From: a candidate division WOR-3 bacterium
GTDB lineage: Bacteria > Hydrothermota > Hydrothermia > LBFQ01 > DSFT01
Assembly: GCA_965649115.1 (NCBI GenBank)
Contig: CBFGJN010000016.1
Span: 1 to 33,587 of the forward strand
DNA: 33,587 bases
Direction: 5' to 3'
The notes beneath the pieces are model-generated. The model was not told the origin of the DNA. It searched no databases and saw only the letters and a list, made by a program, of their open reading frames with translations. Below, piece after piece: positions 1-18,081 of this stretch (position 1 is the first letter of the stretch; every line of letters starts with the position of its first letter). Made by a program: the position numbers and the translations under genes.

Positions 1-128
1 TTAAGGAAATTAAAAATTTTATGGGGGACAAAGCCCCCCTAGACCGAAAAATGGGCATTTATAAGCCGAAGGCTTATTATTAGGGTGGGTGGGAAAAATA
101 TATGTTTTCAGAATTACTAGACACAGCA
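1..128 (+). mobile_element. MITE-like repeat, right part (left part lies outside the window)
   Basis: GGGGGACAAAGCCCCC and ATAAGCCGAAGGCTTAT hairpins, GGGTGGGTGGG tract and right TIR AATTACTAGACACAGCA, all matching the copies at 31077 and 26272. Confidence 0.85.
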
Positions 129-158
129 ATTTTAAATATACTTTAAAATTTAAAAACT

Positions 159-1643
159 ATGAAACATTACAAAAATTTTATAAATGGTAAGTGGATGGAT
201 GCTAAAACTGATAGGACTTTTGAAAGTAGAAATCCTGCAAATTGGGATGAAATTATAGGAATTTTTCCTGATTCTTCAAAGGAAGATGTTGATTTGGCTG
301 TTCAAAGTGCTAAAAAGGGCTTTGAAATATGGTCAAAAATTCCCGCTCCAAAAAGAGGTGAAATTTTAAGAAAAGCAGGTGAGATTCTATTAAAAAGAAA
401 AAAAGAGATAGCTCAATTAATGAGTAAAGAAATTGGTAAGACTATTACAGAAGCAGAAGGTGATGTTCAGGAAGCAATTGATACTGCATTTTATAGTGCA
501 GGAGAAGGTAGAAGATTATTTTCATATATAACACCTTCTGAACTTCCCAATAAATTTGCATTAACTTTTAGAAGACCAGTTGGTATTGTTGGAGTAATAA
601 CTGCTTGGAACTTTCCAATTGCTGTCCCATCTTGGAAAATTTTCCCTGCTCTTCTTGCTGGAAATAGTATTATATTTAAACCTGCTCCTGATGGTTCAGC
701 AGTTGGTTCTATATTTGCGGAAGTTTTACAAGAGGCTGGGCTTCCTGATGGTGTATTTAATATCGTTTTTGGTTATGAAGCTGGAAAATTTATCGTTGAG
801 CATCCAGAAATTAAAGTTATAGCTTTTACAGGTGGAACAGAAACAGGTAAAATTATTTATCAAACATCTGCCAAGTTTTTAAAAAAAGTTTCCTTAGAAT
901 TGGGAGGAAAAAATCCTCAAATTGTAATGCCTTCTGCAAATTTAGATTTAGCAGTTGATGGGGTTTTATGGGGTGCTTTTGGAACAAGTGGTCAAAGATG
1001 TACTTCAACATCAAGGCTTATATTACATGAAAAAATCTATGATGACTTTATGGAAAGATTGAGAAAAAGATTACCTGAACTTATATTAGGTGATCCACTT
1101 GATCCAAAAACAACGATGGGACCAATTATAAATCCTCAATCTTTGGAAAAGATAAAGAAATATGTTGAAATAGGAACAAGTGAGGGAGCAAAATTAACTT
1201 ATGGAGGAAAACAGTTAAAGGATGGTTATTATTCAAAAGGTTGGTGGTTTGAACCAACGATATTTGAAAATGTCCAAACCAATATGAAAATTTTTCAAGA
1301 TGAGATATTCGGACCTGTTCTTTCTGTAATAAAGGTTAAGAGTTTTGAAGAAGCTATTGAAGTTGCTAATAATTCAAGATATGGTTTATCTTCTTCTATT
1401 TATACTAATGATATTAATGAAGCTATGAGAGCAATTGAATTATTACAGGCAGGTATTACTTATATAAATGCTCCAACAATTGGTGCAGAAAGTCATTTAC
1501 CATTTGGTGGAGTTAAAGAAACAGGTAATGGATATAGGGAAGGTGGTTGGACAGTATTTGACATATTCACAGAATGGAAAACGGTTTATATTGATTTTTC
1601 AGGGAGATTACAAAAAGCACAAATTGACACTTGGAAAGAATAA
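159..1643 (+). CDS. NAD(P)-dependent aldehyde dehydrogenase
   Basis: ITAWNFP, FTGGTETG, LELGGKNP, GQRCTS (catalytic Cys), EIFGPV and PFGGVK motifs. Confidence 0.95.
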   Translation: MKHYKNFINGKWMDAKTDRTFESRNPANWDEIIGIFPDSSKEDVDLAVQSAKKGFEIWSKIPAPKRGEILRKAGEILLKRKKEIAQLMSKEIGKTITEAEGDVQEAIDTAFYSAGEGRRLFSYITPSELPNKFALTFRRPVGIVGVITAWNFPIAVPSWKIFPALLAGNSIIFKPAPDGSAVGSIFAEVLQEAGLPDGVFNIVFGYEAGKFIVEHPEIKVIAFTGGTETGKIIYQTSAKFLKKVSLELGGKNPQIVMPSANLDLAVDGVLWGAFGTSGQRCTSTSRLILHEKIYDDFMERLRKRLPELILGDPLDPKTTMGPIINPQSLEKIKKYVEIGTSEGAKLTYGGKQLKDGYYSKGWWFEPTIFENVQTNMKIFQDEIFGPVLSVIKVKSFEEAIEVANNSRYGLSSSIYTNDINEAMRAIELLQAGITYINAPTIGAESHLPFGGVKETGNGYREGGWTVFDIFTEWKTVYIDFSGRLQKAQIDTWKE

Positions 1644-1728
1644 TATTATTGCGTTTTATTTATCAGTAAAGGGGGGCTAACGCTCCCTTGCCAAAAAAGT
1701 GGGTGGGCAAGTAAAGAAAAATAAATAG

Positions 1729-1840
1729 TGCCTTGTCCAAATAAATGGCGTTAAGTCTTTTAAAAAATTCGTTAAAATGCTTGAAATAAAGGGGGTTTTA
1801 TGGGGGTATAGCCCTCCACAGCCTGAAAATAGACACAGCA
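1729..1840 (+). mobile_element. Internally deleted MITE copy embedded in further degenerate repeat remnants (about 1670-1903)
   Basis: Left TIR TGCCTTGTCCAA at 1729 and right TIR TAGACACAGCA ending at 1840. A 9-bp spacer is followed by another TGCTTTG at 1850. Confidence 0.65.
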
Positions 1841-1906
1841 AGGAAAAATTGCTTTGATTTTATCGTGGGAATTTTAGGAGGCAAAGTTTTTAAAGCGAAG
1901 CTTTAT

Positions 1907-3289
1907 CTATCCTTCCTTTAAATTCTTATATTTTTCTACTATTTTATCAAGATATTTTAAAGCTTCTTCTCTCGTTTTAATAATTCCTTCTGCTCTTAAA
2001 TCTTCAATTTCTTGAAGAATTTTTTTATAGATTGGAGATGGTTCAATTCCTCTTTCCATAATATCATAACCCGTTATCAATCTTGGTGGTTTGTTTGCTT
2101 CTTTTTCTCTTTCTACAAGTAAATCTTCCATAATTCTTGCTAATTTTAAATGTCCAGAAACACCATAATGTGATAATTTTGTAGCAAGGGCATCACAGAA
2201 TGCCAAAAGAACTAATGGGAAAGCCCATTCACCCAATCTATTTAAAAATCTATTTATTGCTTTTCTTGTTGTTTCAGGTGCTGAAAGGTAATGAGGATGC
2301 ATATGATTGAGTATAAGATTACTAATGATTTTAATTTCATTTCTTGAAAAGCTTAATCTTCTACCAATTTCTTTAAACATTCTTGAACCTTCAACATCAT
2401 GTCCATAAAAATGAACTTCATTATTCTCATAACTATAAGTTTTTGGTTTTGCTATATCGTGGAAAATTCCCGCTATTACTAAAATTGCTTTATTTGAGCC
2501 TTCATTTAAAATTTTAAATCTATGGATATAATAATGAAATGGAGACATATTTAAAAATTTTAAATAAAAATCCAAAAATTCTATAACTTTTAATGTGTGT
2601 TCTAAAACATTTTGTTCAAGGTGTTCAAGCGGTTTTCTCAAATCTTCTAATTCAGGAAATATATGAAATGCCAAATTTAAATCAATTAAAAATTTAAATG
2701 CTTTGTACGGATTAGGACTTGAAAACATTTTAATTAATTCATAGTGTATTCTTTCACTTGCACTTTTCTTAATCAAATAGCTATCTTTTAAAATTTGATT
2801 ATAAGTATTCATCTCAATTTTAAAATTATATATTGATAAAAATCTAATTGCTCTTAGCATTCTAATTGGATCATCTTGAAATGCTGAATTATAACACATT
2901 CTAATTATTCCGTTTCTTAAATCATCAATTCCAAAAAGCGGGTCAATTATTAAACGATTTTTTATATCATAAGCAATAGCATTAATTGTAAAATCTCTTT
3001 TATTTAAATCCTCAAATATATTATTTCCTCTTGGCGATGAAATATCATAATTTATATCACTAACAACTCTTATTGTACTCTCATCAAGTTTAACAATTGT
3101 TCCCTTGGTTATTTTTGCTATTTGTTTTGAAATTTCATTAATATCGTTAAAAGTTAAAATATCTATATCTTCAATTGTTTCATCTAAAATCAAATTTCTA
3201 ATTGTTCCACCAACAATAAAACTATCCGTTTCCTTCAAAAATTCAAAAATAGGGTATTGTTTTAAATATAATTCTATTTTTTGTTCCAT
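1907..3289 (-). CDS. cca: CCA tRNA nucleotidyltransferase / poly(A) polymerase family protein with HD domain
   Basis: VGGTIRN, DIDI, DLNKRDFTINA, DDPIRMLRAIRF, FHDIAKP and HFYGHD motifs. Confidence 0.85.
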   Translation of the reverse strand: MEQKIELYLKQYPIFEFLKETDSFIVGGTIRNLILDETIEDIDILTFNDINEISKQIAKITKGTIVKLDESTIRVVSDINYDISSPRGNNIFEDLNKRDFTINAIAYDIKNRLIIDPLFGIDDLRNGIIRMCYNSAFQDDPIRMLRAIRFLSIYNFKIEMNTYNQILKDSYLIKKSASERIHYELIKMFSSPNPYKAFKFLIDLNLAFHIFPELEDLRKPLEHLEQNVLEHTLKVIEFLDFYLKFLNMSPFHYYIHRFKILNEGSNKAILVIAGIFHDIAKPKTYSYENNEVHFYGHDVEGSRMFKEIGRRLSFSRNEIKIISNLILNHMHPHYLSAPETTRKAINRFLNRLGEWAFPLVLLAFCDALATKLSHYGVSGHLKLARIMEDLLVEREKEANKPPRLITGYDIMERGIEPSPIYKKILQEIEDLRAEGIIKTREEALKYLDKIVEKYKNLKEG

Positions 3290-4437
3290 ATAAATGATGT
3301 TCTTTGCTTATTTTTCTCACCTTCAATGCTAATTATATATATTCCCGCTTTTTGTAAATCATTTATCTTAAATGTGCCTATTCCTTTGAATTTTCCTGAA
3401 TATATTGTCTTTATAGGAGAACCTCTTGTATCAAGCAATTTTATAATAATAAATTCATTATCTTTATTATTTAATTTAAGCTCAATACCATCATTTTGAT
3501 ATTTAATTTTTAATGAGAATGGGTCCTCTTTTAATGGTTTCTGTGAAGTTAAAATCATACCCCATAAACAACCACATTTTGTTTCAATTATTGGATAATC
3601 TAATTTTTCAGTTTCTAAATTTGTTTTTGGCATTTGTTCAAATAATTTAATTTCTTTGCTCGTTGATATTAAAAAGTCATAACTTCCATCATTATTAAAA
3701 TCTAGGGGAATAACACAATTTATACTATCTTTTGAACTATAAACAACTTCCATATCTCCATAATCTCTAAAAATGCTAACCCTTTTGTTGTCATATAAAA
3801 CAATCTCATTATTCCCATCATCTTCAATATCAATTAAAAAACCATCTTTATAGTTTCCATATATTTTTTTAATTTCATTTAAATTTTCATCAAGCACGAT
3901 AGCCATATTTGATTTAAAAACAATTAAATAATTCATTGATTTTGAAACATTAATAACATCTTCAAAAATGATTTTATCGTTGTCAAAATTTCTTAAATTA
4001 TTATTCTTGTCTATGTAAAGCTTTTTATCTGAGATCTCAATAATCCTATATCCGTACTTTTGATAATATGAACTATCAGAAAGGTTATAGCTTTGAGAGT
4101 TATAATAATTAGAGGATGCCAATAGAATTTTTGATTTTGTTGAGAAATCAGAAAATGTTCCTTTAATATCATAATAGTTTAGTTTTTTAGAATTTAAGTT
4201 ATAACTTAAAAAAGGTGTATCAACATTTTTCGTGATAAAGTAAATTATTGGATAATCAATATAGACTTTTTTTAATGAGTTTTCAAAAGGAAATAAGCTA
4301 TCAATTCCATTTCTGTTTAAAATGAAATTGTCCAAAAGGACTATGGATTTATTACCATCATATATAACATTTACATTCTTTGCTGTTAAATCCCAACTCT
4401 TCGTATTTATCCACAAACTCCAAACAACTAAACTCAT
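3274..4437 (-). CDS. Putative secreted FG-GAP/VCBS-repeat protein with T9SS-like C-terminal sorting domain
   Basis: DIEDDGNNEI and DFNNDGSYDF repeats; C-terminus IKLLDTRG...AGIYIISI. Confidence 0.6.
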   Translation of the reverse strand: MSLVVWSLWINTKSWDLTAKNVNVIYDGNKSIVLLDNFILNRNGIDSLFPFENSLKKVYIDYPIIYFITKNVDTPFLSYNLNSKKLNYYDIKGTFSDFSTKSKILLASSNYYNSQSYNLSDSSYYQKYGYRIIEISDKKLYIDKNNNLRNFDNDKIIFEDVINVSKSMNYLIVFKSNMAIVLDENLNEIKKIYGNYKDGFLIDIEDDGNNEIVLYDNKRVSIFRDYGDMEVVYSSKDSINCVIPLDFNNDGSYDFLISTSKEIKLFEQMPKTNLETEKLDYPIIETKCGCLWGMILTSQKPLKEDPFSLKIKYQNDGIELKLNNKDNEFIIIKLLDTRGSPIKTIYSGKFKGIGTFKINDLQKAGIYIISIEGEKNKQRTSFIWNKK

Positions 4438-9416: not shown

Positions 9417-10251
9417 ATCTTTCTACATAAGCTTTTGCAACCATTTTTGAACATTTTCTTATCCTTCCTATATAGATTGTTCTTTGAGATGGTGAAATTG
9501 CTCTTCTTGAATCAAGGATATTAAATGTATGTGATAATTTTATAACATAATCATAAGCGGGATAAATTAAGTTTAATTCAATCATTCTATAAACTTCCTT
9601 CTCATAAAAATCAAATGCCTTTTTATAAAATTCAACATCTGCAAAATCAAAATTAAAATAACAAAATTCTCTTTCAAAGTCTTTGTAAATATCACCCCAT
9701 TTCCATTTTTCATTCCATTTAATATCAAAAATTGTATCAACATTTTGTATAAACATTGCTATTCTTTCAAGTCCATATGTAATCTCAACTGCAGGAATTT
9801 TTAAATCAATTGAACCTGATTGTTGAAAATAGGTAAATTGAGTTATTTCTAATCCATCAATCCAAACTTCCCATCCTATTCCCCAAGCTCCAAGTGTAGG
9901 GCTTTCCCAATCATCTTCAACAAATCTTAAATCATGATTTTTTATATCTATTCCTATTGCTTTTAATGAATCAATATAAATATCAATAACATTATCTTCG
10001 GGAGGTTTTAGTATAACTTGAAATTGATAATATTGCTGAACACGATTTGGATTTTCTGCATATCTTCCATCTTTTGGTCTTCTTGTAGGTTCAATATATG
10101 CACATCGCCATGGTTTATTATCAAGAACTTTAAGAAATGTTGCTATATTGAATGTGGCAGCTCCAACTTCTGAATTATAAGGTTCAAATATAAGACAACC
10201 TTTACTTTTCCAATAATTTTTCAAGTTAAGAATAATATCTTCAAAAAACAT
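9406..10251 (-). CDS. glyQ: Glycine-tRNA ligase alpha subunit
   Basis: RRPKDGRY, EDDWESPTLGAWG, EITQFTYFQQ and EITYGLERIAM motifs. Confidence 0.97.
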   Translation of the reverse strand: MFFEDIILNLKNYWKSKGCLIFEPYNSEVGAATFNIATFLKVLDNKPWRCAYIEPTRRPKDGRYAENPNRVQQYYQFQVILKPPEDNVIDIYIDSLKAIGIDIKNHDLRFVEDDWESPTLGAWGIGWEVWIDGLEITQFTYFQQSGSIDLKIPAVEITYGLERIAMFIQNVDTIFDIKWNEKWKWGDIYKDFEREFCYFNFDFADVEFYKKAFDFYEKEVYRMIELNLIYPAYDYVIKLSHTFNILDSRRAISPSQRTIYIGRIRKCSKMVAKAYVERYGK

Positions 10252-10294
10252 AATATGATTTTTGAAAATTTTAAAGTTATCGGCATAGGGGGCT

Positions 10295-10921
10295 TTATTT
10301 ATTTATGAATTTTGAAAAATTTTTGTTATTGTAAAATGTTAAATTTTTTAAATTTTTATAATCTTCAATACTATGTGCATCTGAGCCAACTAAATCGCAA
10401 ATTTCATATAATTTTTGAGCTTTTTTCATAATTTCTGTCCCATAAGCTCCATTTAAACTTTTTACATTTACTTGAATTAGAACATTAAAATCTTTTATTT
10501 TCTTAACTTCATTAATTGTAAGGTAAGGGTATCTTTCTGGATGTGCTAAAATTGGTTTTAAACCATATTTCATAACCTTTATAAATGGTTCAATTATATC
10601 AGATGGTTTTTTATAAAAGTCAAATTCTAATAAAATAAAATTTGTTCTTTCAACAGCAAAAATTCTTGGATCATAGCTTTCAATTGCATCAATTCTAACT
10701 TCATATCCAATCAATATATTGAAGTCAATATGTTTTAATATATTTTCTCTAATTTCATTTAAAGTTTCTCTTTTCGGGAAATATAAACTATTAGCATGTG
10801 GTGTTGCTATAACACCTGAAAAATTATTTTCTTTTAAGAATTTTATCATTTCAATTGTTTCCTCTAAACTTTGAGAACCATCATCTACATTAGGCAGAAT
10901 ATGACAATGAAAATCAAACAT
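10295..10921 (-). CDS. PHP-family protein-tyrosine phosphatase (CpsB/CapC/YwqE-like)
   Basis: DFHCHILPNVDDG, ATPH, LAHPERY and GSDAH motifs. Confidence 0.88.
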   Translation of the reverse strand: MFDFHCHILPNVDDGSQSLEETIEMIKFLKENNFSGVIATPHANSLYFPKRETLNEIRENILKHIDFNILIGYEVRIDAIESYDPRIFAVERTNFILLEFDFYKKPSDIIEPFIKVMKYGLKPILAHPERYPYLTINEVKKIKDFNVLIQVNVKSLNGAYGTEIMKKAQKLYEICDLVGSDAHSIEDYKNLKNLTFYNNKNFSKFINK

Positions 10922-10964
10922 ATTTAAAAGTTTAAAATTTTAAAGGGAAGTAATTAAGAGGCTA

Positions 10965-11006
10965 TGCTTTGTTCAGTAAATTCGGGGGTTTTAATGGTGG
11001 GCGAAG
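10965..11006 (+). repeat. Degenerate MITE fragment upstream of the Argonaute locus
   Basis: TGCTTTGTTCAGTAAAT (TIR-like) joined to GGGGGTTTTAATGGTGGGCGAAG. Confidence 0.55.
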
Positions 11007-11029
11007 TTTTTATCCTTTAAAATTTAATT

Positions 11030-11743
11030 ATGTCAATTCATTTAAATATGTTTGAAATTAGACTTCCAAATGAAAAATTTAAAGTATTTAGTAAAAAAGT
11101 CAAAAATCCAAATTATCAAGAATTAAAGAATAAATATAAAAACGAAGATATAAATTTTTATTTAATAGGGAAATTTTTATACGCTTATGGCAAAGATATT
11201 TCAATTTTAAGAAATGAAAGATTTAGAGAACTTTCTATTTCTTTTAACGATGAGCCAAAATTAACAGGAAAAATTTTAAAAGATGCAATTATAAAAAAAT
11301 TAGAAAAATTACAAAATTATCAAATAGATAATAAAAAATTTGAAATTATAGTTTATGAGAAACTTCCAAAAATAATAGCTGAAAAACTTGAAGTTTATCG
11401 TGGTTTTAGATTACAAGTAATTTTTTTAAATGTAGAAAATGCTTTAAAATTTTTCTTAATAGTTAATAGAAAGTTTAAAACAAATTTAAGCCCAAAAGAA
11501 ATAAAAGAATTAGATGAGGAAATCTATGATAAATTCAAAATTGAACAAGGAGAGCTAAATGAAGATGGGAAAATAAATAAAAATCTAGGTAAAATGATAT
11601 TTGAAGATATTAAAAATTTCGTTTCTCAAATAGGATTTATAGACCTTCCTTATGGCCTAAAAGCTAATATAAATAATGAGCCTTATTGTTTGAAATATGA
11701 AGATAAAATTTTTTCATCTACCCACTTTAATTCTTGGTTATAA
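11030..11743 (+). CDS. Argonaute N-lobe subunit (N-L1-L2, AfAgo-N-like) of a split pAgo
   Basis: N-terminal LNMFEI strand, LYAYG, LTGKILKD, LEVYRGF...FLIVNRKF, LNEDGK and LPYG...EP pattern, as recalled for AfAgo-N-type subunits. Lies directly upstream of and overlaps a MID-PIWI gene. Confidence 0.7.
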   Translation: MSIHLNMFEIRLPNEKFKVFSKKVKNPNYQELKNKYKNEDINFYLIGKFLYAYGKDISILRNERFRELSISFNDEPKLTGKILKDAIIKKLEKLQNYQIDNKKFEIIVYEKLPKIIAEKLEVYRGFRLQVIFLNVENALKFFLIVNRKFKTNLSPKEIKELDEEIYDKFKIEQGELNEDGKINKNLGKMIFEDIKNFVSQIGFIDLPYGLKANINNEPYCLKYEDKIFSSTHFNSWL

Positions 11744-12704
11744 ATATCCTGTTGATTTATCCAAAGAAAAATTATACCCTGCGATTAAATCAGCCGGTCC
11801 CTATCAGCCTTTAAAAAACGAAGTTAGAGGAGCTATAATTTCAAAGAAAATTGAGGAAGATATTGAAAGTTTTAAAAATTATTTTGAAGCAGAGTTTAAA
11901 GGTCTTTTTAAGAAAGAAATAAAGCTTGATATTAGGCAAAAATTAGATAACATTGGTAATTATCAAATAATTATTTGGGTAGTTTGTGATGAAAGTGATT
12001 ATATAAATGCAAAAAATCAAAAAAGAATATCTAAGGTTCCTATTCAAATTGTAAGAAAAGAAAAAATAAATTCTAATAACAAAGGTTATAATTTTTTAAT
12101 TTCAAATCTTTGTCTTAATGTTTATTGTAAGCTTGGTTTTATTCCCTGGATTATAGAACCTAACTATGATGCTTATGTTGTAGGAATTAAGAAAAAGAAA
12201 AGGAATAATAATTTTGTTTATTTTGTTAAAGTTTTTAAAAATGATGGTTATTTGGTTTTCAAAGATGGTCCTAGTTCAAATTTTAAAGAACTATTAAGTA
12301 AAATTCCTAGATATACAAATAAATTTTCCTTCCATTTTTCTGTTAAACCCTCAAATGATGAAATTTCAGCTATTGAAGAAAATTTTAGAATTTATAAATA
12401 TGCCATAATTTATATAAATTTATATTCAAACTTTCTTATGTTTGATTTAAGGAATGAATGGTATATGCCAGAAAGTGGATATTTTATTAGATTGAGTGGA
12501 AATAGAGGACTTATATTATCTGATGGCTTATTTAATTCAAAAAGAAGCAAGCCTGGTTTTCCAAAAGTTTTAGATGTTAATATTTTAAAATCAAAAATAA
12601 ATTTTAATGAATACGAGAAATTATTTGAGCAAATTTATCATTTTCGTTATGTAAATTATAAGAGTTTTTTTAGTTTTCCATCAATTCCAGCTGAAATTAC
12701 TTAA
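11697..12704 (+). CDS. Argonaute MID-PIWI* subunit (long-B/AfAgo-like, catalytically inactive, probably C-terminally truncated)
   Basis: GPYQ; MID pocket YxxxK (YINAK), PIQ and NLxxNVYCKLGxxPW; PIWI VVGI (no Asp), VFKNDG, FHFSVK, YAIIYIN, MPESG, IYHFRYVNY and SIPAEI followed by a stop. Confidence 0.85.
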   Translation: MKIKFFHLPTLILGYKYPVDLSKEKLYPAIKSAGPYQPLKNEVRGAIISKKIEEDIESFKNYFEAEFKGLFKKEIKLDIRQKLDNIGNYQIIIWVVCDESDYINAKNQKRISKVPIQIVRKEKINSNNKGYNFLISNLCLNVYCKLGFIPWIIEPNYDAYVVGIKKKKRNNNFVYFVKVFKNDGYLVFKDGPSSNFKELLSKIPRYTNKFSFHFSVKPSNDEISAIEENFRIYKYAIIYINLYSNFLMFDLRNEWYMPESGYFIRLSGNRGLILSDGLFNSKRSKPGFPKVLDVNILKSKINFNEYEKLFEQIYHFRYVNYKSFFSFPSIPAEIT

Positions 12705-13461
12705 ACCAAACATTATATTCATATTTCTTTGCCCCAAATGATGATTTTATAAAACCTACACTTTCCTTAGTTTCAAGTCCAAAGTCAAGAATTTCTATTT
12801 TATTTTCAATAGCCCATCTTACACTAATTAAGAATAAAAATTCCCCCATATCAAAATTTAATAATTTTTTATAACCTGAAATCCAAAGTAGTGCATAGTT
12901 ATTTACTTTTACTATTAAAATTCCTCCCAAGTAGTTATCATTTTGAAAAACATTTATTAAATTAAGATATTTTTTTAGCTTTAAAATACTTTCTTTTTTA
13001 AAAGGTTTGTGATGTCCTGAATAAACAATTTTATAACTTTCATAGAATTTTTCAAAAAAGTCAAAACCCTCTTTAATTGTTAAATTTAACTTTCTCTCTT
13101 TGTTTTGAAGTTTTTTTAAGCTTTTATATCTATTTTTGCTAATCATTTTAAAAAAAATTTCAATAGATTGTGGCACTTCAAGAAGATAAGTAAAAACTTT
13201 CTTATTTTTTAGAAATTCAACATTTATTTTATTTTCAAAGTCATATATGTAAAATTTAAAAAAATTTTTTGATATTGATTTTAAAAACATTTTATCTACA
13301 CTATTTTTAAATCCTCCGTAAAATCCATAAGTTAATGAATAACCTCTTTTTATTAAATTCCCTTTTGATATAATAGCTATTGGTTCAAAAAACTCAACTT
13401 TTCCTTCTGAAAAATCAGCTAATTTTTTTATAAATTCTTCTTCACAAAATGGATTTTTCAA
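12697..13461 (-). CDS. GNAT/FemAB-like acyltransferase-domain protein
   Basis: C-terminal YLGGIL...LWISG...WAIENKIEILDFG...FIKSSFGA pattern. Confidence 0.7.
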   Translation of the reverse strand: MKNPFCEEEFIKKLADFSEGKVEFFEPIAIISKGNLIKRGYSLTYGFYGGFKNSVDKMFLKSISKNFFKFYIYDFENKINVEFLKNKKVFTYLLEVPQSIEIFFKMISKNRYKSLKKLQNKERKLNLTIKEGFDFFEKFYESYKIVYSGHHKPFKKESILKLKKYLNLINVFQNDNYLGGILIVKVNNYALLWISGYKKLLNFDMGEFLFLISVRWAIENKIEILDFGLETKESVGFIKSSFGAKKYEYNVWFK

Positions 13462-13853
13462 AGTCTAAACATAAGCAATATACCTGCAAATAAATCTAAT
13501 GTAGTATTTGGAATTAATCTGAATGCAGGTGTAATTTGAATACCAAGGTCTATTGGAGCTTCTGTAAATGAATAATTTAATGTAAATGGAATTCGTATTC
13601 CTACACCAGCAGATTGATTTTTATCAACTTTTACTGTCATTAAATAACCACCAATTCCAATATAAAACTTCAAAGGTTGAAGTTCTCTCGTTGGTATATT
13701 GAAATCTTTATCAAAACTAAAATAAATGTTGTTATCTATAACATCCCAGCCAGCCATAATTCTAAAATCTTGTTCAAACCTTAAAGATAAAGCAACAGGT
13801 GAACCTATATGAGCACCAATAGAATGAAGCTGGGTAGTGAGAATGAAAATCAT
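13458..13853 (-). CDS. Hypothetical small outer-membrane beta-barrel-like protein (start revised from 13925 to 13853)
   Basis: Alternating beta-strand pattern (FYIGIGG, GVGIRIPFTLNY, LFAGILLMFRL). The ATG at 13853 lies 7 nt from a TAAAAT box, and the 13925 extension runs through repeat DNA. Confidence 0.55.
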   Translation of the reverse strand: MIFILTTQLHSIGAHIGSPVALSLRFEQDFRIMAGWDVIDNNIYFSFDKDFNIPTRELQPLKFYIGIGGYLMTVKVDKNQSAGVGIRIPFTLNYSFTEAPIDLGIQITPAFRLIPNTTLDLFAGILLMFRL

Positions 13854-13898
13854 AGCTAAAATTTTAAAGGTTAAATTGAAGTAGTGTGTTTTATAAAT

Positions 13899-13951
13899 GC
13901 TAACGCCCCCTATTAAATCCCCCAATAAATCAAATAATTGATTAAAACTTT
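13899..13951 (-). repeat. Degenerate MITE internal fragment
   Basis: GCCCCCTATTAAATCCCCCAATAAATCAA matches the interior of the 4483 and 33252 copies. Confidence 0.55.
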
Positions 13952-14482: not shown

Positions 14483-14906
14483 ATATATTGGAAATTTTAG
14501 GTGGAAAGATATTTTTGAAAAACCTTATAAAACTAATGATAATTCATTTTTAAATGTTAAGCGTTTTGAGATCGTAAAAGGTAAGGATATTGAATTTAGA
14601 TATTTTGAAATTGAAAAAGGTGGTTATTCATCACTTGAAAGGCATGAACATGAACATATTGTAATGTTCATAAAGGGTAGAGGAATTGTTTTAATTGAAG
14701 ATGAAATTTATGAATTTGAACCATTTGATGTTATTTACATCCAATCATTTAAAGCACATAGATTTATAGCAAAATATGAAGATATAGGATTTATTTGTGT
14801 TGTAAAAAAAGATAGAGATAAACCTCAAAAATTAAATGAAGAAGAAATAAAAGCTTTAATTAACAAAAATCCAAATTTAAAGGAATTTTTAAAGTTCGGG
14901 GTATAG
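14472..14906 (+). CDS. Cupin-domain protein
   Basis: SSLERHEHEH and H-R-F metal-binding cupin motifs. Confidence 0.85.
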   Translation: MLFKYIGNFRWKDIFEKPYKTNDNSFLNVKRFEIVKGKDIEFRYFEIEKGGYSSLERHEHEHIVMFIKGRGIVLIEDEIYEFEPFDVIYIQSFKAHRFIAKYEDIGFICVVKKDRDKPQKLNEEEIKALINKNPNLKEFLKFGV

Positions 14907-14968
14907 CTCAATGGTAGAGCGTTCGGTTCGGGACCGAAAGGTTGCCGGTTCAAATCCGGCTACCCCGA
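14897..14968 (+). tRNA. tRNA-Pro (anticodon CGG), no encoded 3' CCA
   Basis: Acceptor CGGGGTA/TACCCCG, D arm GCTCAATGGTAGAGC, anticodon arm TTCGG-TTCGGGA-CCGAA, T arm GCCGG-TTCAAAT-CCGGC, discriminator A followed by ATT. Confidence 0.95.
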
Positions 14969-14969
14969 A

Positions 14970-16520
14970 TTGGTAGAAGAAAAATTAAAGAAAGTCGCTT
15001 CCGCTTTATTAGATAAATATAAACAAGTTTCAAAACCAAAAGAAAGTGTTATTATTTTTGTTTATAAAAAAGAACTTGGATGGGAAATTTTAAAATTAGC
15101 TTATGAACAAGGTTATAAAATTATAAATAAAACACTGCCATTTTATGTTGAATATAAAACTAATTTTGATTACTACGATTTCGGATTTCATAATGCTGAT
15201 ATTCCTTATGAAGAGAGAGAAGAAATTGAAGATGCTTTTAGAAAAGGAAAATTAAAGTGCTTAATTTCTACATCAACCTTGGCTTATGGTGTGAATTTAC
15301 CTGCTGATAGAGTAATTATATTATTAACTTCATTTTATGATAAAGAGAAAGGAAAAATGATAACACTTCCATCAATAACAGATGTTATCCAAATGGAAGG
15401 AAGGGCAGGAAGATTTGGTATTAAAGAAATAGGTTATGTTCATATATTGAGATACAGAACATCTAAAAAAACTTATGATAAAGTTTATGAAGAAACTTTT
15501 AATTCTTCTGATAGTGAAATTGTTAACGCACTTAAAAACATAGATAAAATTTTTGATGATTATTTAGGAGAAGCTGCAAGACTATCATCATTCATTTTAT
15601 CTGCTTATAAAATTAGTAATGGAGATGTTTTTGAATTTCTAAAAAGAACATTTTCATTTAAAGATTTTAACGATAAAAGAAAAATTACCTTTATTTTGGA
15701 TTTCCTAACTCAAAAAAAGTACATTGAAAACAATAAAGTTACAAAGAAAGGAGAATTTTGTTTAAGTAGCGGAATTCCACCAACTGCTTATGAAGAATTT
15801 TTAAAAAGAGCAAAAATAAAAGGTGATTTATTTGTAAAAATTAGACCATTAATTTGGACAAAAAGAATTAAAGATTGCTTAAAACCATTTTTAACTGAAG
15901 AAGATGTTATAAAATTTTATGATAAAAGCTTTTTAGAAGCTTTAAAGCCATTTGATTATCCTGAAGACGGCTCACATGAATTAATTTTCTATATTAAAGG
16001 TGGGCTTTTTAAATTAAGGAATATCCATAATCCTCCAAGTGAATTATATTTAGGAACAGAAGTTTTACACCTTTCAAAGGCACTCATAAAAATTTCTGAT
16101 TACTTCTTTCTTTCAAATGAAGATATTTTAAGAATTGCTCATTCACTAAGATATGGAATTGATTATGAATTTTCACCTATTGGTTCAATTGGAGGCATAG
16201 GTCATATGAGAGCAAACGCTATTAAATTAGCTATATCATTAAATCATAAAATTAAAAATTTTAGTTTTGAAAATAAGGTTAGTGATATTCTTGATTTATT
16301 AGATGAAAAAACATTAAAGGAAGTCCTTTCAATGAGATATACTCATTCTGAAAATATAAAAAGGGAAGCAAGCAATATCTTAAATGCGCTTTCAAAAAAT
16401 AGGGATAAAGTTCTTATAGATGAATATATTTTAAGAGGCATTAGTTTATTTAAGCTTGATAAAGAATCTGCATTAAAATTGCCAGTTAATGAGCTTCTTA
16501 ATAAATATCTTGAAAGCTAA
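14970..16520 (+). CDS. Ski2/Hel308-like SF2 helicase, C-terminal portion only (possible pseudogene)
   Basis: IIFV, GFHNAD, STSTLAYGVNLPA and QMEGRAGR (motifs IV-VI) plus GIGHMRA HhH-like motif. Walker A and DExH are absent. TTG start abuts the tRNA. Confidence 0.8.
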   Translation: MVEEKLKKVASALLDKYKQVSKPKESVIIFVYKKELGWEILKLAYEQGYKIINKTLPFYVEYKTNFDYYDFGFHNADIPYEEREEIEDAFRKGKLKCLISTSTLAYGVNLPADRVIILLTSFYDKEKGKMITLPSITDVIQMEGRAGRFGIKEIGYVHILRYRTSKKTYDKVYEETFNSSDSEIVNALKNIDKIFDDYLGEAARLSSFILSAYKISNGDVFEFLKRTFSFKDFNDKRKITFILDFLTQKKYIENNKVTKKGEFCLSSGIPPTAYEEFLKRAKIKGDLFVKIRPLIWTKRIKDCLKPFLTEEDVIKFYDKSFLEALKPFDYPEDGSHELIFYIKGGLFKLRNIHNPPSELYLGTEVLHLSKALIKISDYFFLSNEDILRIAHSLRYGIDYEFSPIGSIGGIGHMRANAIKLAISLNHKIKNFSFENKVSDILDLLDEKTLKEVLSMRYTHSENIKREASNILNALSKNRDKVLIDEYILRGISLFKLDKESALKLPVNELLNKYLES

Positions 16521-17329
16521 TGGAAATTTTAAATAATATCAATTACAAAAAATTTTCTTCAATTTCTGATTTTTTAGCATTTATTAGTATTTATGATGAT
16601 AATAATAGAACGATTGCTTGGAAAAATTTGATGCTAAAATATTCTAATTATTTTAAAAATGGTATTGTAGTTGAACTTGGTGCGGGTTTTGGATTATTTT
16701 CTGAATTCGCACTTGAACTTGGGGCAAAAAAGGTTTATGCAATTGAAAGAAATAGATATTTATTTAATGTTCTTAAAGAAAGGCTTTCAAAATATAAAGA
16801 AATAAAAGTTATTAATATAAATGCACTTAAATTTATACCAAAAGAACACATTGATGTTGTTATTCATGACTTTTATGGGCATTTACTTTATGATGAATCG
16901 TTATATATTCTTGATAATTTAAAATTTAAACCAAGTATTGTTATACCAAATGGCGGAAAGCTTAAACTTGGATTTTTTGATTTAAATGATATTGAAGATA
17001 ATGTTATTGATTATTCCATTTTAAGACAACTTAAAAATTTATTAATATCTGATTTATTTATAATTGAAAATAAACCTAAATTAACTATTGATTTAGCAAC
17101 TTGGTCATTTTCAGAAGGATTAAAAATTGATGAAATTGTTGATATTTCTAATTTCAAAGGTGAAATTCTATTGTTTTATCTTGAAGTTCTTCATAATAAT
17201 AACTTTGTTTGTGATGCTTTTGAATGTCAAAATTGGTCTTTGGTTTTTGCTTATAGATTTTCTGATAGATTTTCTTTGAAATTCAAGTGGGGTGGTGATT
17301 TTTGTAAAGTTTATTTTTCTTTTCTATGA
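16520..17329 (+). CDS. Class I SAM-dependent methyltransferase, PRMT-like
   Basis: DNNRT, VVELGAGFG, GAKKVYAIE, IDVVIHDFYGHLLYDE and VIP motifs. Confidence 0.75.
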   Translation: MEILNNINYKKFSSISDFLAFISIYDDNNRTIAWKNLMLKYSNYFKNGIVVELGAGFGLFSEFALELGAKKVYAIERNRYLFNVLKERLSKYKEIKVININALKFIPKEHIDVVIHDFYGHLLYDESLYILDNLKFKPSIVIPNGGKLKLGFFDLNDIEDNVIDYSILRQLKNLLISDLFIIENKPKLTIDLATWSFSEGLKIDEIVDISNFKGEILLFYLEVLHNNNFVCDAFECQNWSLVFAYRFSDRFSLKFKWGGDFCKVYFSFL

Positions 17330-18081
17330 ATTACAAAATTATAAAAAATGAAGATGAAATTTTAAAATTAGATGAGAAAATTAGATATGAGTTTTTAAAT
17401 TCAAGGAATCGTGTAAAAGTTGAAAAAATTCTAAATGGTTATTTATTCGTTCTTGTTATATCAATAAATAAAATGGTTGTTGTATTTTTTAATGAAAATG
17501 AAATGATATTTAGAAGCTTTGGTTTTGATATTGAAAATTACATTAGTAATAATTTTTCTGAAACATTATTTAGATTATTTCAGGAAATTGGAACAAATGA
17601 AATTGATAAATTAAGAGAAGAGCTTAAAAATCTTGAAGATAAAGTATTTTCAAAAATTGATTATCCAAAACTTGATAAATCATTACTTAAAAGTTTATAT
17701 TTTTATAAGAAATCAATAGATGAATTAGCGAGATATTATTTTCTACAAGAGGATTTATTAGAGGAAATGGAAATTGATAGAAAAGTCCTTTTTCAAATAA
17801 GAAGAATTAAAACTGCTCTTGAAAAAATTTCAAGTTCAACAAATTCCCTTATTGAAATATATCTTGAAATGATTGATACAGCAGCTAATGAAATTATGAA
17901 GTTTTTAACAATCATTGCTACAATTTTTATACCGCTATCATTTTTGGCAGGTGTTTATGGTATGAATTTTAAATATATTCCTGAACTTGAATGGAAATTT
18001 GGATATTTTTTGTTTTGGATTATTTGTATTGTTTTTTCAATTTTTTCAATTTTTTATTTTAAGAAAAAAAAGTGGATTTAA
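17326..18081 (+). CDS. corA: CorA family divalent cation transporter
   Basis: NEIMKFLTII, FLAGVYGMNF and IPEL motifs with two C-terminal TM helices. Confidence 0.9.
   Translation: MNYKIIKNEDEILKLDEKIRYEFLNSRNRVKVEKILNGYLFVLVISINKMVVVFFNENEMIFRSFGFDIENYISNNFSETLFRLFQEIGTNEIDKLREELKNLEDKVFSKIDYPKLDKSLLKSLYFYKKSIDELARYYFLQEDLLEEMEIDRKVLFQIRRIKTALEKISSSTNSLIEIYLEMIDTAANEIMKFLTIIATIFIPLSFLAGVYGMNFKYIPELEWKFGYFLFWIICIVFSIFSIFYFKKKKWI

Follow-up and report, generated by a model that had tools for sequence, protein, structure and literature searches.

The window analysed here is a stretch of 33,587 nucleotides (nt) from a candidate division WOR-3 bacterium (contig CBFGJN010000016.1 of assembly GCA_965649115.1; the source genome is 94.5% complete and is called G000 below). 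On its forward strand two overlapping open reading frames (ORFs), ORF1 and ORF2, quite probably encode a genuine two-cistron prokaryotic Argonaute (pAgo) that is devoid of a PAZ domain, catalytically inactive, of the split long-B ("fAfAgo") type and probably still functional. ORF1 would provide the N-L1-L2 lobe and ORF2 the MID-PIWI lobe. A preliminary description, made from the sequence alone, had proposed a split, PAZ-less, dead pair similar to AfAgo-N and AfAgo of Archaeoglobus fulgidus; both halves do match these two proteins, and relatives keep the two cistrons. Split long-B pAgos forming heterodimers are known in bacteria and in archaea (PMC10954474). The kind of system is thus already known, and the window mostly adds confirmation. 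What is new in this clade is the minimal size, the conserved loss of the PIWI tail and either the lack of an effector or the presence of an ARPP-1 partner. At 237 and 335 amino acids (aa) the pair, already described as very compact, is the smallest form met in this analysis.

The two subunits and their predicted complex

ORF1 is a stand-alone N-L1-L2 subunit, as its sequence pattern had suggested. It matches positions 5-159 of the 656 in the PADLOC pAgo model PDLC02395 (E=1.3e-10). Its AlphaFold (AF2) model has a mean pLDDT of 91.4 and a pTM of 0.86, and in a Foldseek search the top five matches of this model are all AfAgo-N chains (E 1.8e-9 to 8.7e-9; TM 0.61-0.68), followed by RsAgo and then by the APAZ subunits of short-pAgo systems. 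The single ORF1 sequence has no match in the PDB; a profile of 31 family members has AfAgo-N (8ok9_C) as its best PDB match at 2.5e-4. ORF1 superposes over its full length on the PAZ-less AfAgo-N, leaving no room for a PAZ domain. The fold covers the whole protein except for a disordered 12-residue tail (residues 226-237), which is encoded in the overlap with ORF2, has a pLDDT below 50 and is not conserved; no other Pfam or PADLOC domain is present. Among 1.84 billion proteins the ORF1 family has 34 non-self representatives, with lengths of 237-269 aa (28 proteins), 143-207 aa (three), 359-365 aa (two) and 736 aa (one). N6 is invariant and F8 nearly invariant across the 31 family sequences. 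One deposited gene call (P0008) uses an alternative start at M7. The start at 11030 is favoured because N6 and F8 are conserved and residues 1-7 lie in the predicted interface with ORF2.

The 736-aa member of the family, P0028, is a fusion protein. An ADP-ribosylglycohydrolase (residues 23-362; Pfam, 2.7e-42) is followed by an N-L1-L2 domain (residues 486-735) that is complete when aligned with hhalign (probability 100%, E=4.8e-57). The architecture is of the effector-then-APAZ style, with a type of effector that was not met in the pAgo literature searched.

ORF2 is a compact MID-PIWI subunit. The PADLOC model PDLC02436 matches it at 1.7e-30, and its sequence finds EcAgo (5.5e-8) and AfAgo (4.2e-7) in the PDB. 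A profile of the ORF2 clade gives 1.8e-11 for EcAgo and 2.3e-7 for AfAgo, the latter over profile positions 30-333. In a Foldseek search the top match of the ORF2 model is AfAgo (8ok9_A) at 9.5e-15, with a TM of 0.33 that is not meaningful since the model is poor. The Pfam Piwi profile by itself stays below threshold (22 against a gathering score of 28.9 bits). The MID-PIWI identity that had been read from the sequence alone is thus borne out by database comparison. Chance as the source of the identity of the pair is excluded by the PADLOC matches on both ORFs and by an identical contig from another sample, described below.

Within the pAgos a long-B placement of ORF2 is favoured on the basis of the profile scores, the nearest solved relatives and the PADLOC classes. 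EcAgo, the closest solved relative by sequence, is described as a long-B pAgo of the EcBPAN system (PMC10620215). Two "Class II" models (pAgo_II) match ORF2 at about 1e-16 and about 58 bits, against 3e-3 and 15 bits for "Class I" (pAgo_I). A short-pAgo type system, in which an APAZ protein accompanies a short pAgo, has to be weighed against this placement. ORF2 is of short-pAgo size, further matches of the ORF1 model include APAZ subunits (those of SPARSA, SPARTA, SPARDA and the S. islandicus system; E 1e-7 to 1e-5, TM about 0.5), and the domain order of P0028 is typical of short pAgo systems. However, AfAgo-N and then RsAgo stand above every APAZ chain in the Foldseek ranking, and ORF1 carries no effector domain. 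The PDB matches of ORF2 at E<=10 are EcAgo, AfAgo, KmAgo, a PIWI-clade protein, 5awh, 6d95 and 6d8a, with no short pAgo among them; the last three are labelled "Uncharacterized protein" in the sequence listing, and 5awh and 6d8a appear as RsAgo in the Foldseek titles. The class scores point the same way, and a relative in the same phylum (genome G085) pairs with an Aga_HEPN gene that PADLOC assigns to "Class II". A short-pAgo system is therefore an improbable description of the pair.

The preliminary description had pointed to a 5′-phosphate pocket in the MID domain (YxxxK, Q, and K in CKLG..PW). In HMMER alignments ORF2 residues Y102, K106, Q117 and K145, the last in CKLG..PW, fall on AfAgo Y123, K127, Q137 and K163, which we take from the AfPiwi structures to be the residues of this pocket. 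Q117 and K145 are invariant in the ORF2 clade. Y102 and K106 are kept in all seven sequences that cover them and also in the homologues from G085 and from a third genome, G003.

The PIWI strands had been described as lacking the catalytic aspartates. An hhalign comparison of the ORF2 clade with a second, 644-aa pAgo of the same genome places "VVGIK" on "IIGLD" and "FHFSVK" on "ILRDGR", so that the two catalytic Asp positions are replaced by K165 and S215. The probability of this alignment is low, but it is consistent with the alignments to EcAgo and AfAgo. The fourth tetrad position coincides with the shortened C-terminus or falls past it. Judged by these alignments, the catalytic DEDX tetrad is lost in ORF2, both alignable Asp positions being replaced.

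The shortened C-terminus is a point that the preliminary description had missed. ORF2 ends nine residues past the position aligned to AfAgo residue 384 of 427, three past EcAgo residue 694 of 731, and 33 residues short of the end of the G085 homologue, relative to which it has a deletion in the MID domain as well. The entire ORF2 clade stops about 31-43 residues early, without the C-terminal segment of PIWI. The truncation is a trait of the clade and not a local break, because all seven members end alike, and the common end point holds across two genomic contexts.

ORF1 and ORF2 are predicted to form one Argonaute-shaped heterodimer. Complex prediction gives ipSAE values of 0.85, 0.85 and 0.84 for the pair, against 0.02 for the best control; of 157 solved complexes 116 reach the mark set for ipSAE, as do 2 of 215 mismatched pairs. 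At least 82% of contacts recur between the runs, and the partner pLDDT is at least 83. The contacts with the lowest predicted error join ORF1 residues 3-6 to ORF2 residues 246-250. In the model the N-terminal strand of ORF1 would add onto a PIWI strand (ORF2 246-250) and close the nucleic-acid binding channel.

The junction between the cistrons

Relative to ORF1, ORF2 is in the +1 frame, and the overlap contains an A4T6 run. ORF1 is matched by the N-terminal end, and ORF2 by the C-terminal end, of the same PADLOC pAgo models. These features would also suit a single PAZ-less pAgo of about 560 aa split through an error in sequencing, through a homopolymer subject to phase variation or through a programmed +1 frameshift in A4T6. 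Three kinds of junction bear on this alternative.

The first is the same sequence recovered elsewhere. Over 11254-12774 a contig of 1,521 nt from a different sample (X2) shows 0 differences from the window; the figures for a further sample, X4, are identical to those for X2, and the two are probably the same data filed twice. The second is a strain variant in run X6 of another study, which is roughly 93% identical to the window; 108 of about 1,690 letters differ, a divergence of about 6%. At window positions 11682-11695 a 791-nt contig of X6 shows 26 extra and 14 re-used letters, a net insertion of 40 nt that repeats local sequence in part. The tail of the X6 ORF1 changes frame because 40 nt is not a multiple of 3, and ORF1 would then stop at a TGA overlapping the ATG of ORF2 (ATGA type) if a few flanking letters are assumed to be unchanged. 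A 1-nt loss at 12025 is made good 4 nt further on, at 12029, and outside the junction neither ORF has an uncompensated indel.

The third kind is provided by relatives. In G002, a genome of the same genus with 52-56% aa identity, ORFs of 262 and 350 aa overlap by 38 nt of different sequence, and four metagenome loci (L010-L013) repeat this two-cistron layout. The ORFs of G085 measure 265 and 418 aa and share 26 nt. In G003 an ORF1 homologue of 252 aa, 28% identical, overlaps by 4 nt a MID gene that runs off the contig. Each time ORF2 starts at an ATG of its own, and the overlaps (4, 26, 38 and 47 nt) stand in differing frame relations. In the window the ATG at 11697 is the earliest possible start of ORF2 after an in-frame TGA at 11691-11693. 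Because overlap and frame vary while the ORF2 start is constant, two translationally coupled cistrons are indicated rather than a programmed frameshift, the coupling probably acting through the overlapping stop and start.

Protein lengths agree with this. In the 184-587 aa range all six non-self ORF2 homologues measure 215-380 aa, and of the 34 non-self ORF1 relatives 28 stand alone, at 237-269 aa. No fused ORF1-ORF2 homologue was found among proteins of 588-2000 aa, which is weak evidence. AfAgo-N and AfAgo are, by experiment, two separate proteins (PMC10954474). A frameshift or sequencing error at the A4T6 run is rejected in view of the differing junctions of the relatives, the identical contig and the X6 insertion, and a single broken gene in any form is a highly improbable source of the pair. 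By the comparison of these junctions the two-cistron split is genuine.

Partner genes, distribution and function

Most long-B pAgos are reported to work through an effector, though some fall in a "none" category without an associated protein (PMC10620215). The effector gene usually lies immediately downstream of split and single-chain long-B pAgos (PMC10954474, PMC10620215), and the conserved downstream effector consists of a helical domain with a transmembrane, TIR, HEPN or PD-(D/E)XK domain, or is Sir2-like (PMC10954474). The preliminary description had found no effector beside the pair. This is true for the window, where PADLOC gives no match on the neighbouring genes; the closest relatives nonetheless carry a coupled gene, ARPP-1, which lies upstream and not downstream.

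These relatives form a sister lineage made up of G002 and the four metagenome loci, five ARPP-1-coupled loci in all (two of the loci recorded, L006 and L014, are the same G002 contig). Their block consists of four co-directional genes: a TPR/Zn-ribbon gene (338-344 aa), ARPP-1 (454-458 aa), the N-lobe gene and the MID-PIWI gene. Pfam PF20208 recognises ARPP-1 with about 91 bits (cut-off 27), and the ARPP-1 gene shares 11 nt with the N-lobe gene that follows it. In G085 the pair is coupled to a downstream Aga_HEPN gene (9.7e-84). This split pAgo and its Aga_HEPN stand in a small island (L024, G085:C84, 303-6198) together with an M78-peptidase/HTH regulator, DUF4411 and a restriction-modification fragment. 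In G003 two fragmentary N6_N4 DNA-methylase ORFs immediately precede the more distant split pAgo (L007, G003:C90, 2586-5031). Neither ARPP-1 nor Aga_HEPN was found in G000, by the same searches that are positive in G002 and G085.

G000 encodes a second Argonaute, the 644-aa protein used above for alignment. It is a single chain on the reverse strand (locus L008, region G000:C21:12828-13586, ORF 1435-3369), matches the full PADLOC "PprPIWI" model (2.5e-66) and contains the motifs GLDV, RDG and HYAD. From these motifs it looks catalytically intact. Genes for membrane proteins flank it.

The pair has a patchy distribution. Of 272 genomes of the phylum, four have the ORF1 family, and G000 is one of these; among 41 genomes of relatives ORF2 is present in two and ORF1 in three. 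Scans of the genome contigs for further ORF2 relatives gave none with the single protein and only the G002 contig with an alignment, and a scan of viral contigs with the ORF2 alignment A1 gave none. A tblastn search of plasmids returned only four distant matches (22-24% identity), and a profile search of a set of 5.8 billion proteins gave no new members of the ORF2 clade.

G000 and G002 share about 90% identity in the flanking DNA but only 66% in the pAgo DNA, and the chromosomal site differs. Because of these differences in site and identity the two pairs are not, on sequence comparison, positional orthologues. At the G002-type site G000 has 1.3 kb with an unrelated 326-aa ORF instead of the 4.3-kb four-gene block. 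This ORF (L038, G000:C2:24300-26600, 445-1425 on the reverse strand) has a weak match to Por_Secre_tail, a T9SS sorting domain, and it marks the interval from RuvX to a TPR gene as a variable hot spot. Such patchy, site-shifting behaviour is typical of accessory defence-type genes. A clean empty insertion site was not obtained for the window: the gene order surrounding the CpsB and GNAT genes varies among genomes of the same genus, and both G002 contigs end at the junction.

Several observations weigh against a functional split long-B pAgo in the window. No effector gene adjoins the pair. The ORF2 model on its own is poor (pLDDT 57, from an 8-sequence alignment), and the high score of the complex shows likeness and may be carried over from solved fAfAgo and APAZ/short-pAgo complexes. 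In AfAgo a Mg2+ ion sits at the C-terminus beside the phosphorylated 5′ end of the guide (PMC10954474), and without this segment the anchoring of a guide in ORF2 may be different or impaired. Constraint on the pair also looks weak. The ratio of non-synonymous to synonymous substitution rates (dN/dS, NG86 method) between the window and G002 is 0.41 for ORF1 and 0.52 for ORF2, against 0.16 for the flanking GNAT gene. Within the sister lineage (L010 against L012) it is 0.86 for ORF1, 0.67 for ORF2, 0.35 for ARPP-1 and 0 for an MtnA-like gene. Among 40 listed of the 96 differences between the window and X6, 30 codons outside the overlap are affected, 25 with a change of residue and five silently; neutral change would give nearly the same proportions, about 81% non-synonymous and 19% silent.

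The pair could thus be a decaying remnant, once coupled to an ARPP-1- or HEPN-type effector that has since been lost, and now drifting without function. The raised dN/dS, the mostly non-synonymous strain differences and the missing PIWI C-terminus would fit this history, as would the partner genes of the nearest relatives, all five ARPP-1-coupled, and of G085, both of which G000 lacks in searches that detect them in the positive-control genomes. Yet both ORFs are intact in the window, in the identical contig and in the X6 variant, with no stop among the 40 differences listed. Truncation and compaction are common to all seven members of the clade, the ARPP-1-coupled ones too, and are therefore not a local decay. 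The pocket residues and the predicted interface are kept, and dN/dS against G002 is below 1; high dN/dS is common in defence genes. Because the frames stay open in three strain-level versions without uncompensated indels, the sequences argue modestly for fast evolution under selection rather than decay. Loss of function is accordingly an unlikely state for this pair, though one with some weight.

For a functional pair the following mode of action can be drawn by analogy with fAfAgo and with RsAgo and EcAgo (PMC10620215). fAfAgo uses 5′-phosphorylated RNA guides and DNA targets (PMC10954474). The heterodimer would most likely load short 5′-phosphorylated RNA guides through the Y/K/Q/K pocket and would bind complementary DNA without cutting it. 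It most likely still acts as a binding-only module for interference or sensing, or together with an unlinked partner; taken jointly, binding-only interference and signalling to an unlinked partner are likely to account for its role, which may be one in defence.

A more speculative reading concerns the clade as a whole. The ARPP-1 coupling of the sister lineage and the ADP-ribosylglycohydrolase fusion of P0028 suggest a minimal Argonaute, without the PIWI tail that anchors Mg2+ and the 5′-phosphate, in a family linked with ADP-ribose chemistry instead of the known nuclease, SIR2, TIR or membrane effectors. ARPP is predicted to be an enzyme acting on ADP-ribose-derived ribose in conflict systems centred on ADP-ribosylglycohydrolases; the text of the paper that describes it draws no link between ARPP and Argonaute and has "PIWI" twice, in other contexts (PMC9503650). 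Literature searches returned no paper that joins pAgos with ARPP or ADP-ribosylglycohydrolase. This lead lies outside the window, rests on one lineage and one fusion protein, and is doubtful at present. If it were true, it would define a new class of pAgo effector, and the copy in the window would be a derivative without an effector, either signalling to an unlinked partner or working alongside the 644-aa pAgo.

Genomic surroundings and comparison with known systems

The two overlapping forward-strand ORFs lie exactly where the preliminary description had placed them, and both neighbours are, as it said, on the opposite strand (Table 1). The local G+C content is 22-25% at the pair and 25-29% in most of the flanks. 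A consensus promoter scan of 10200-13600 gave 29 sites against 24.5 +/- 5.2 expected, with none inside the intergenic region upstream of ORF1, and promoter and terminator scans around the pair stayed at chance level. Flanking repeats around the pair amounted to AT-rich chance matches only. A look-up of RNA runs listed none that contains the locus.

Table 1. Features of the locus and of the related four-gene block (window positions unless a contig or locus is named)
Feature	Position	Strand	Description
CpsB/PHP-type phosphatase gene	10295-10921	-	Pfam CpsB_CapC, 1.2e-36
Intergenic region, presumed promoter of the pair	10922..11029	+	108 nt between the divergent CpsB-like gene and ORF1; presumed from position only
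ORF1	11030..11743	+	237 aa; stand-alone PAZ-less N-L1-L2 (AfAgo-N-like/APAZ-like) subunit
ORF1/ORF2 overlap	11697..11743	+	47 nt; non-conserved ORF1 tail over the ORF2 start; contains the A4T6 run
ORF2	11697..12704	+	335 aa; compact MID-PIWI subunit, catalytically inactive by alignment, C-terminally truncated
MID 5′-phosphate pocket codons (putative)	12000..12131	+	Y102 (12000), K106 (12012), Q117 (12045), K145 (12129)
First and third catalytic-tetrad positions	12189..12341	+	K165 (12189-12191), S215 (12339-12341)
GNAT-like gene	12697-13461	-	Convergent; its end overlaps the ORF2 end by 8 nt
Sister-lineage four-gene block	L006/L014 (G002:C136) 45-4341; L010 4663-8966; L011 130-4442; L012 and L013 4721-9017		TPR/Zn-ribbon, ARPP-1, N-lobe, MID-PIWI

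The CpsB/PHP neighbour was considered as a hidden effector and ruled out. It is kept at 46-64% identity in four of the five relatives searched, three of them without an ORF2 match, and the idea is rejected because of this retention. The convergent GNAT-like gene is likewise kept in relatives without the pAgo. It forms a pair with a DUF3996 gene (12697-13925, reverse strand) and is GNAT/FemAB-like, with a weak Acetyltransf_6 match; all five relatives searched have it, and in three (G001, G002 and G004) DUF3996 adjoins it.

Further downstream a tRNA gene (14897-14968) is directly followed by a 516-aa Hel308-like helicase ORF, which consists of the C-terminal helicase half alone, with no N-terminal ATPase domain. 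Beyond it lie an rRNA-adenine-methylase-like gene and a CorA-like gene that is short at its N-terminus, and the G+C content falls to 21-23% at 16.5-19 kb of the window. The tRNA-adjoining region (14897-18081) may be a remnant island.

The recognition of split long-B Argonautes dates only from 2024. With its 237 and 335 aa the pair lends itself to asking whether an Argonaute can dispense with the C-terminal tail of PIWI. Close relatives with and without a coupled partner gene are useful for the role of a lone dead Argonaute, and ARPP-1 and ADP-ribosylglycohydrolase provide a lead to a possible new type of effector.

Long-A pAgos have an intact DEDX tetrad and a PAZ domain in one chain, features that the pair does not share. 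In the short pAgo systems (SPARTA, SPARSA and SPARDA) APAZ is fused to an effector domain (TIR, SIR2 or nuclease), whereas ORF1 has none. EcAgo, in EcBPAN, and RsAgo have a catalytically dead PIWI domain like the pair; EcAgo is the best PDB sequence match of ORF2, and the N-terminal region of RsAgo is the next fold match of ORF1 after AfAgo-N. In contrast to the split, PAZ-less and effector-less pair, they are single chains of 731-778 aa with a reduced PAZ domain and usually a downstream nuclease, SIR2 or membrane effector (PMC10620215).

The split pAgo of G085 has an ORF1 of the same family (3.3e-83 to the family profile), the same best model (PDLC02436) and two overlapping cistrons. Its MID-PIWI protein differs from ORF2 in its length of 418 aa, its full C-terminus, a Pfam Piwi match that passes the threshold (84 bits), the downstream Aga_HEPN and a position beside M78/HTH and DUF4411. 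The ARPP-1-coupled sister lineage (G002 and L010-L013) contains the closest relatives, at 52-57% aa identity, with the same compaction and the same C-terminal end. Unlike the window it has ARPP-1 upstream, preceded by the TPR/Zn-ribbon gene, at a different chromosomal site.

The closest characterised system is fAfAgo of Archaeoglobus fulgidus, composed of AfAgo-N and AfAgo (Af1318) and described as a "truncated long-B" pAgo (PDB 8ok9, 8pvv; PMC10954474). fAfAgo is archaeal and has a downstream effector of the Af1317 type, whereas the pair in the window is bacterial and has no such effector. AfAgo measures 427 aa against 335 aa for ORF2, which lacks the C-terminal stretch of about 43 residues including the Mg2+-holding C-terminus, and identity in structural alignments is only 16-20%. 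The two systems nevertheless share the same arrangement of an upstream N-L1-L2 protein without PAZ and a downstream inactive MID-PIWI protein. The Y/K/Q/K pocket is kept, a heterodimer is predicted here, and fAfAgo is the best structural and profile match for both halves.

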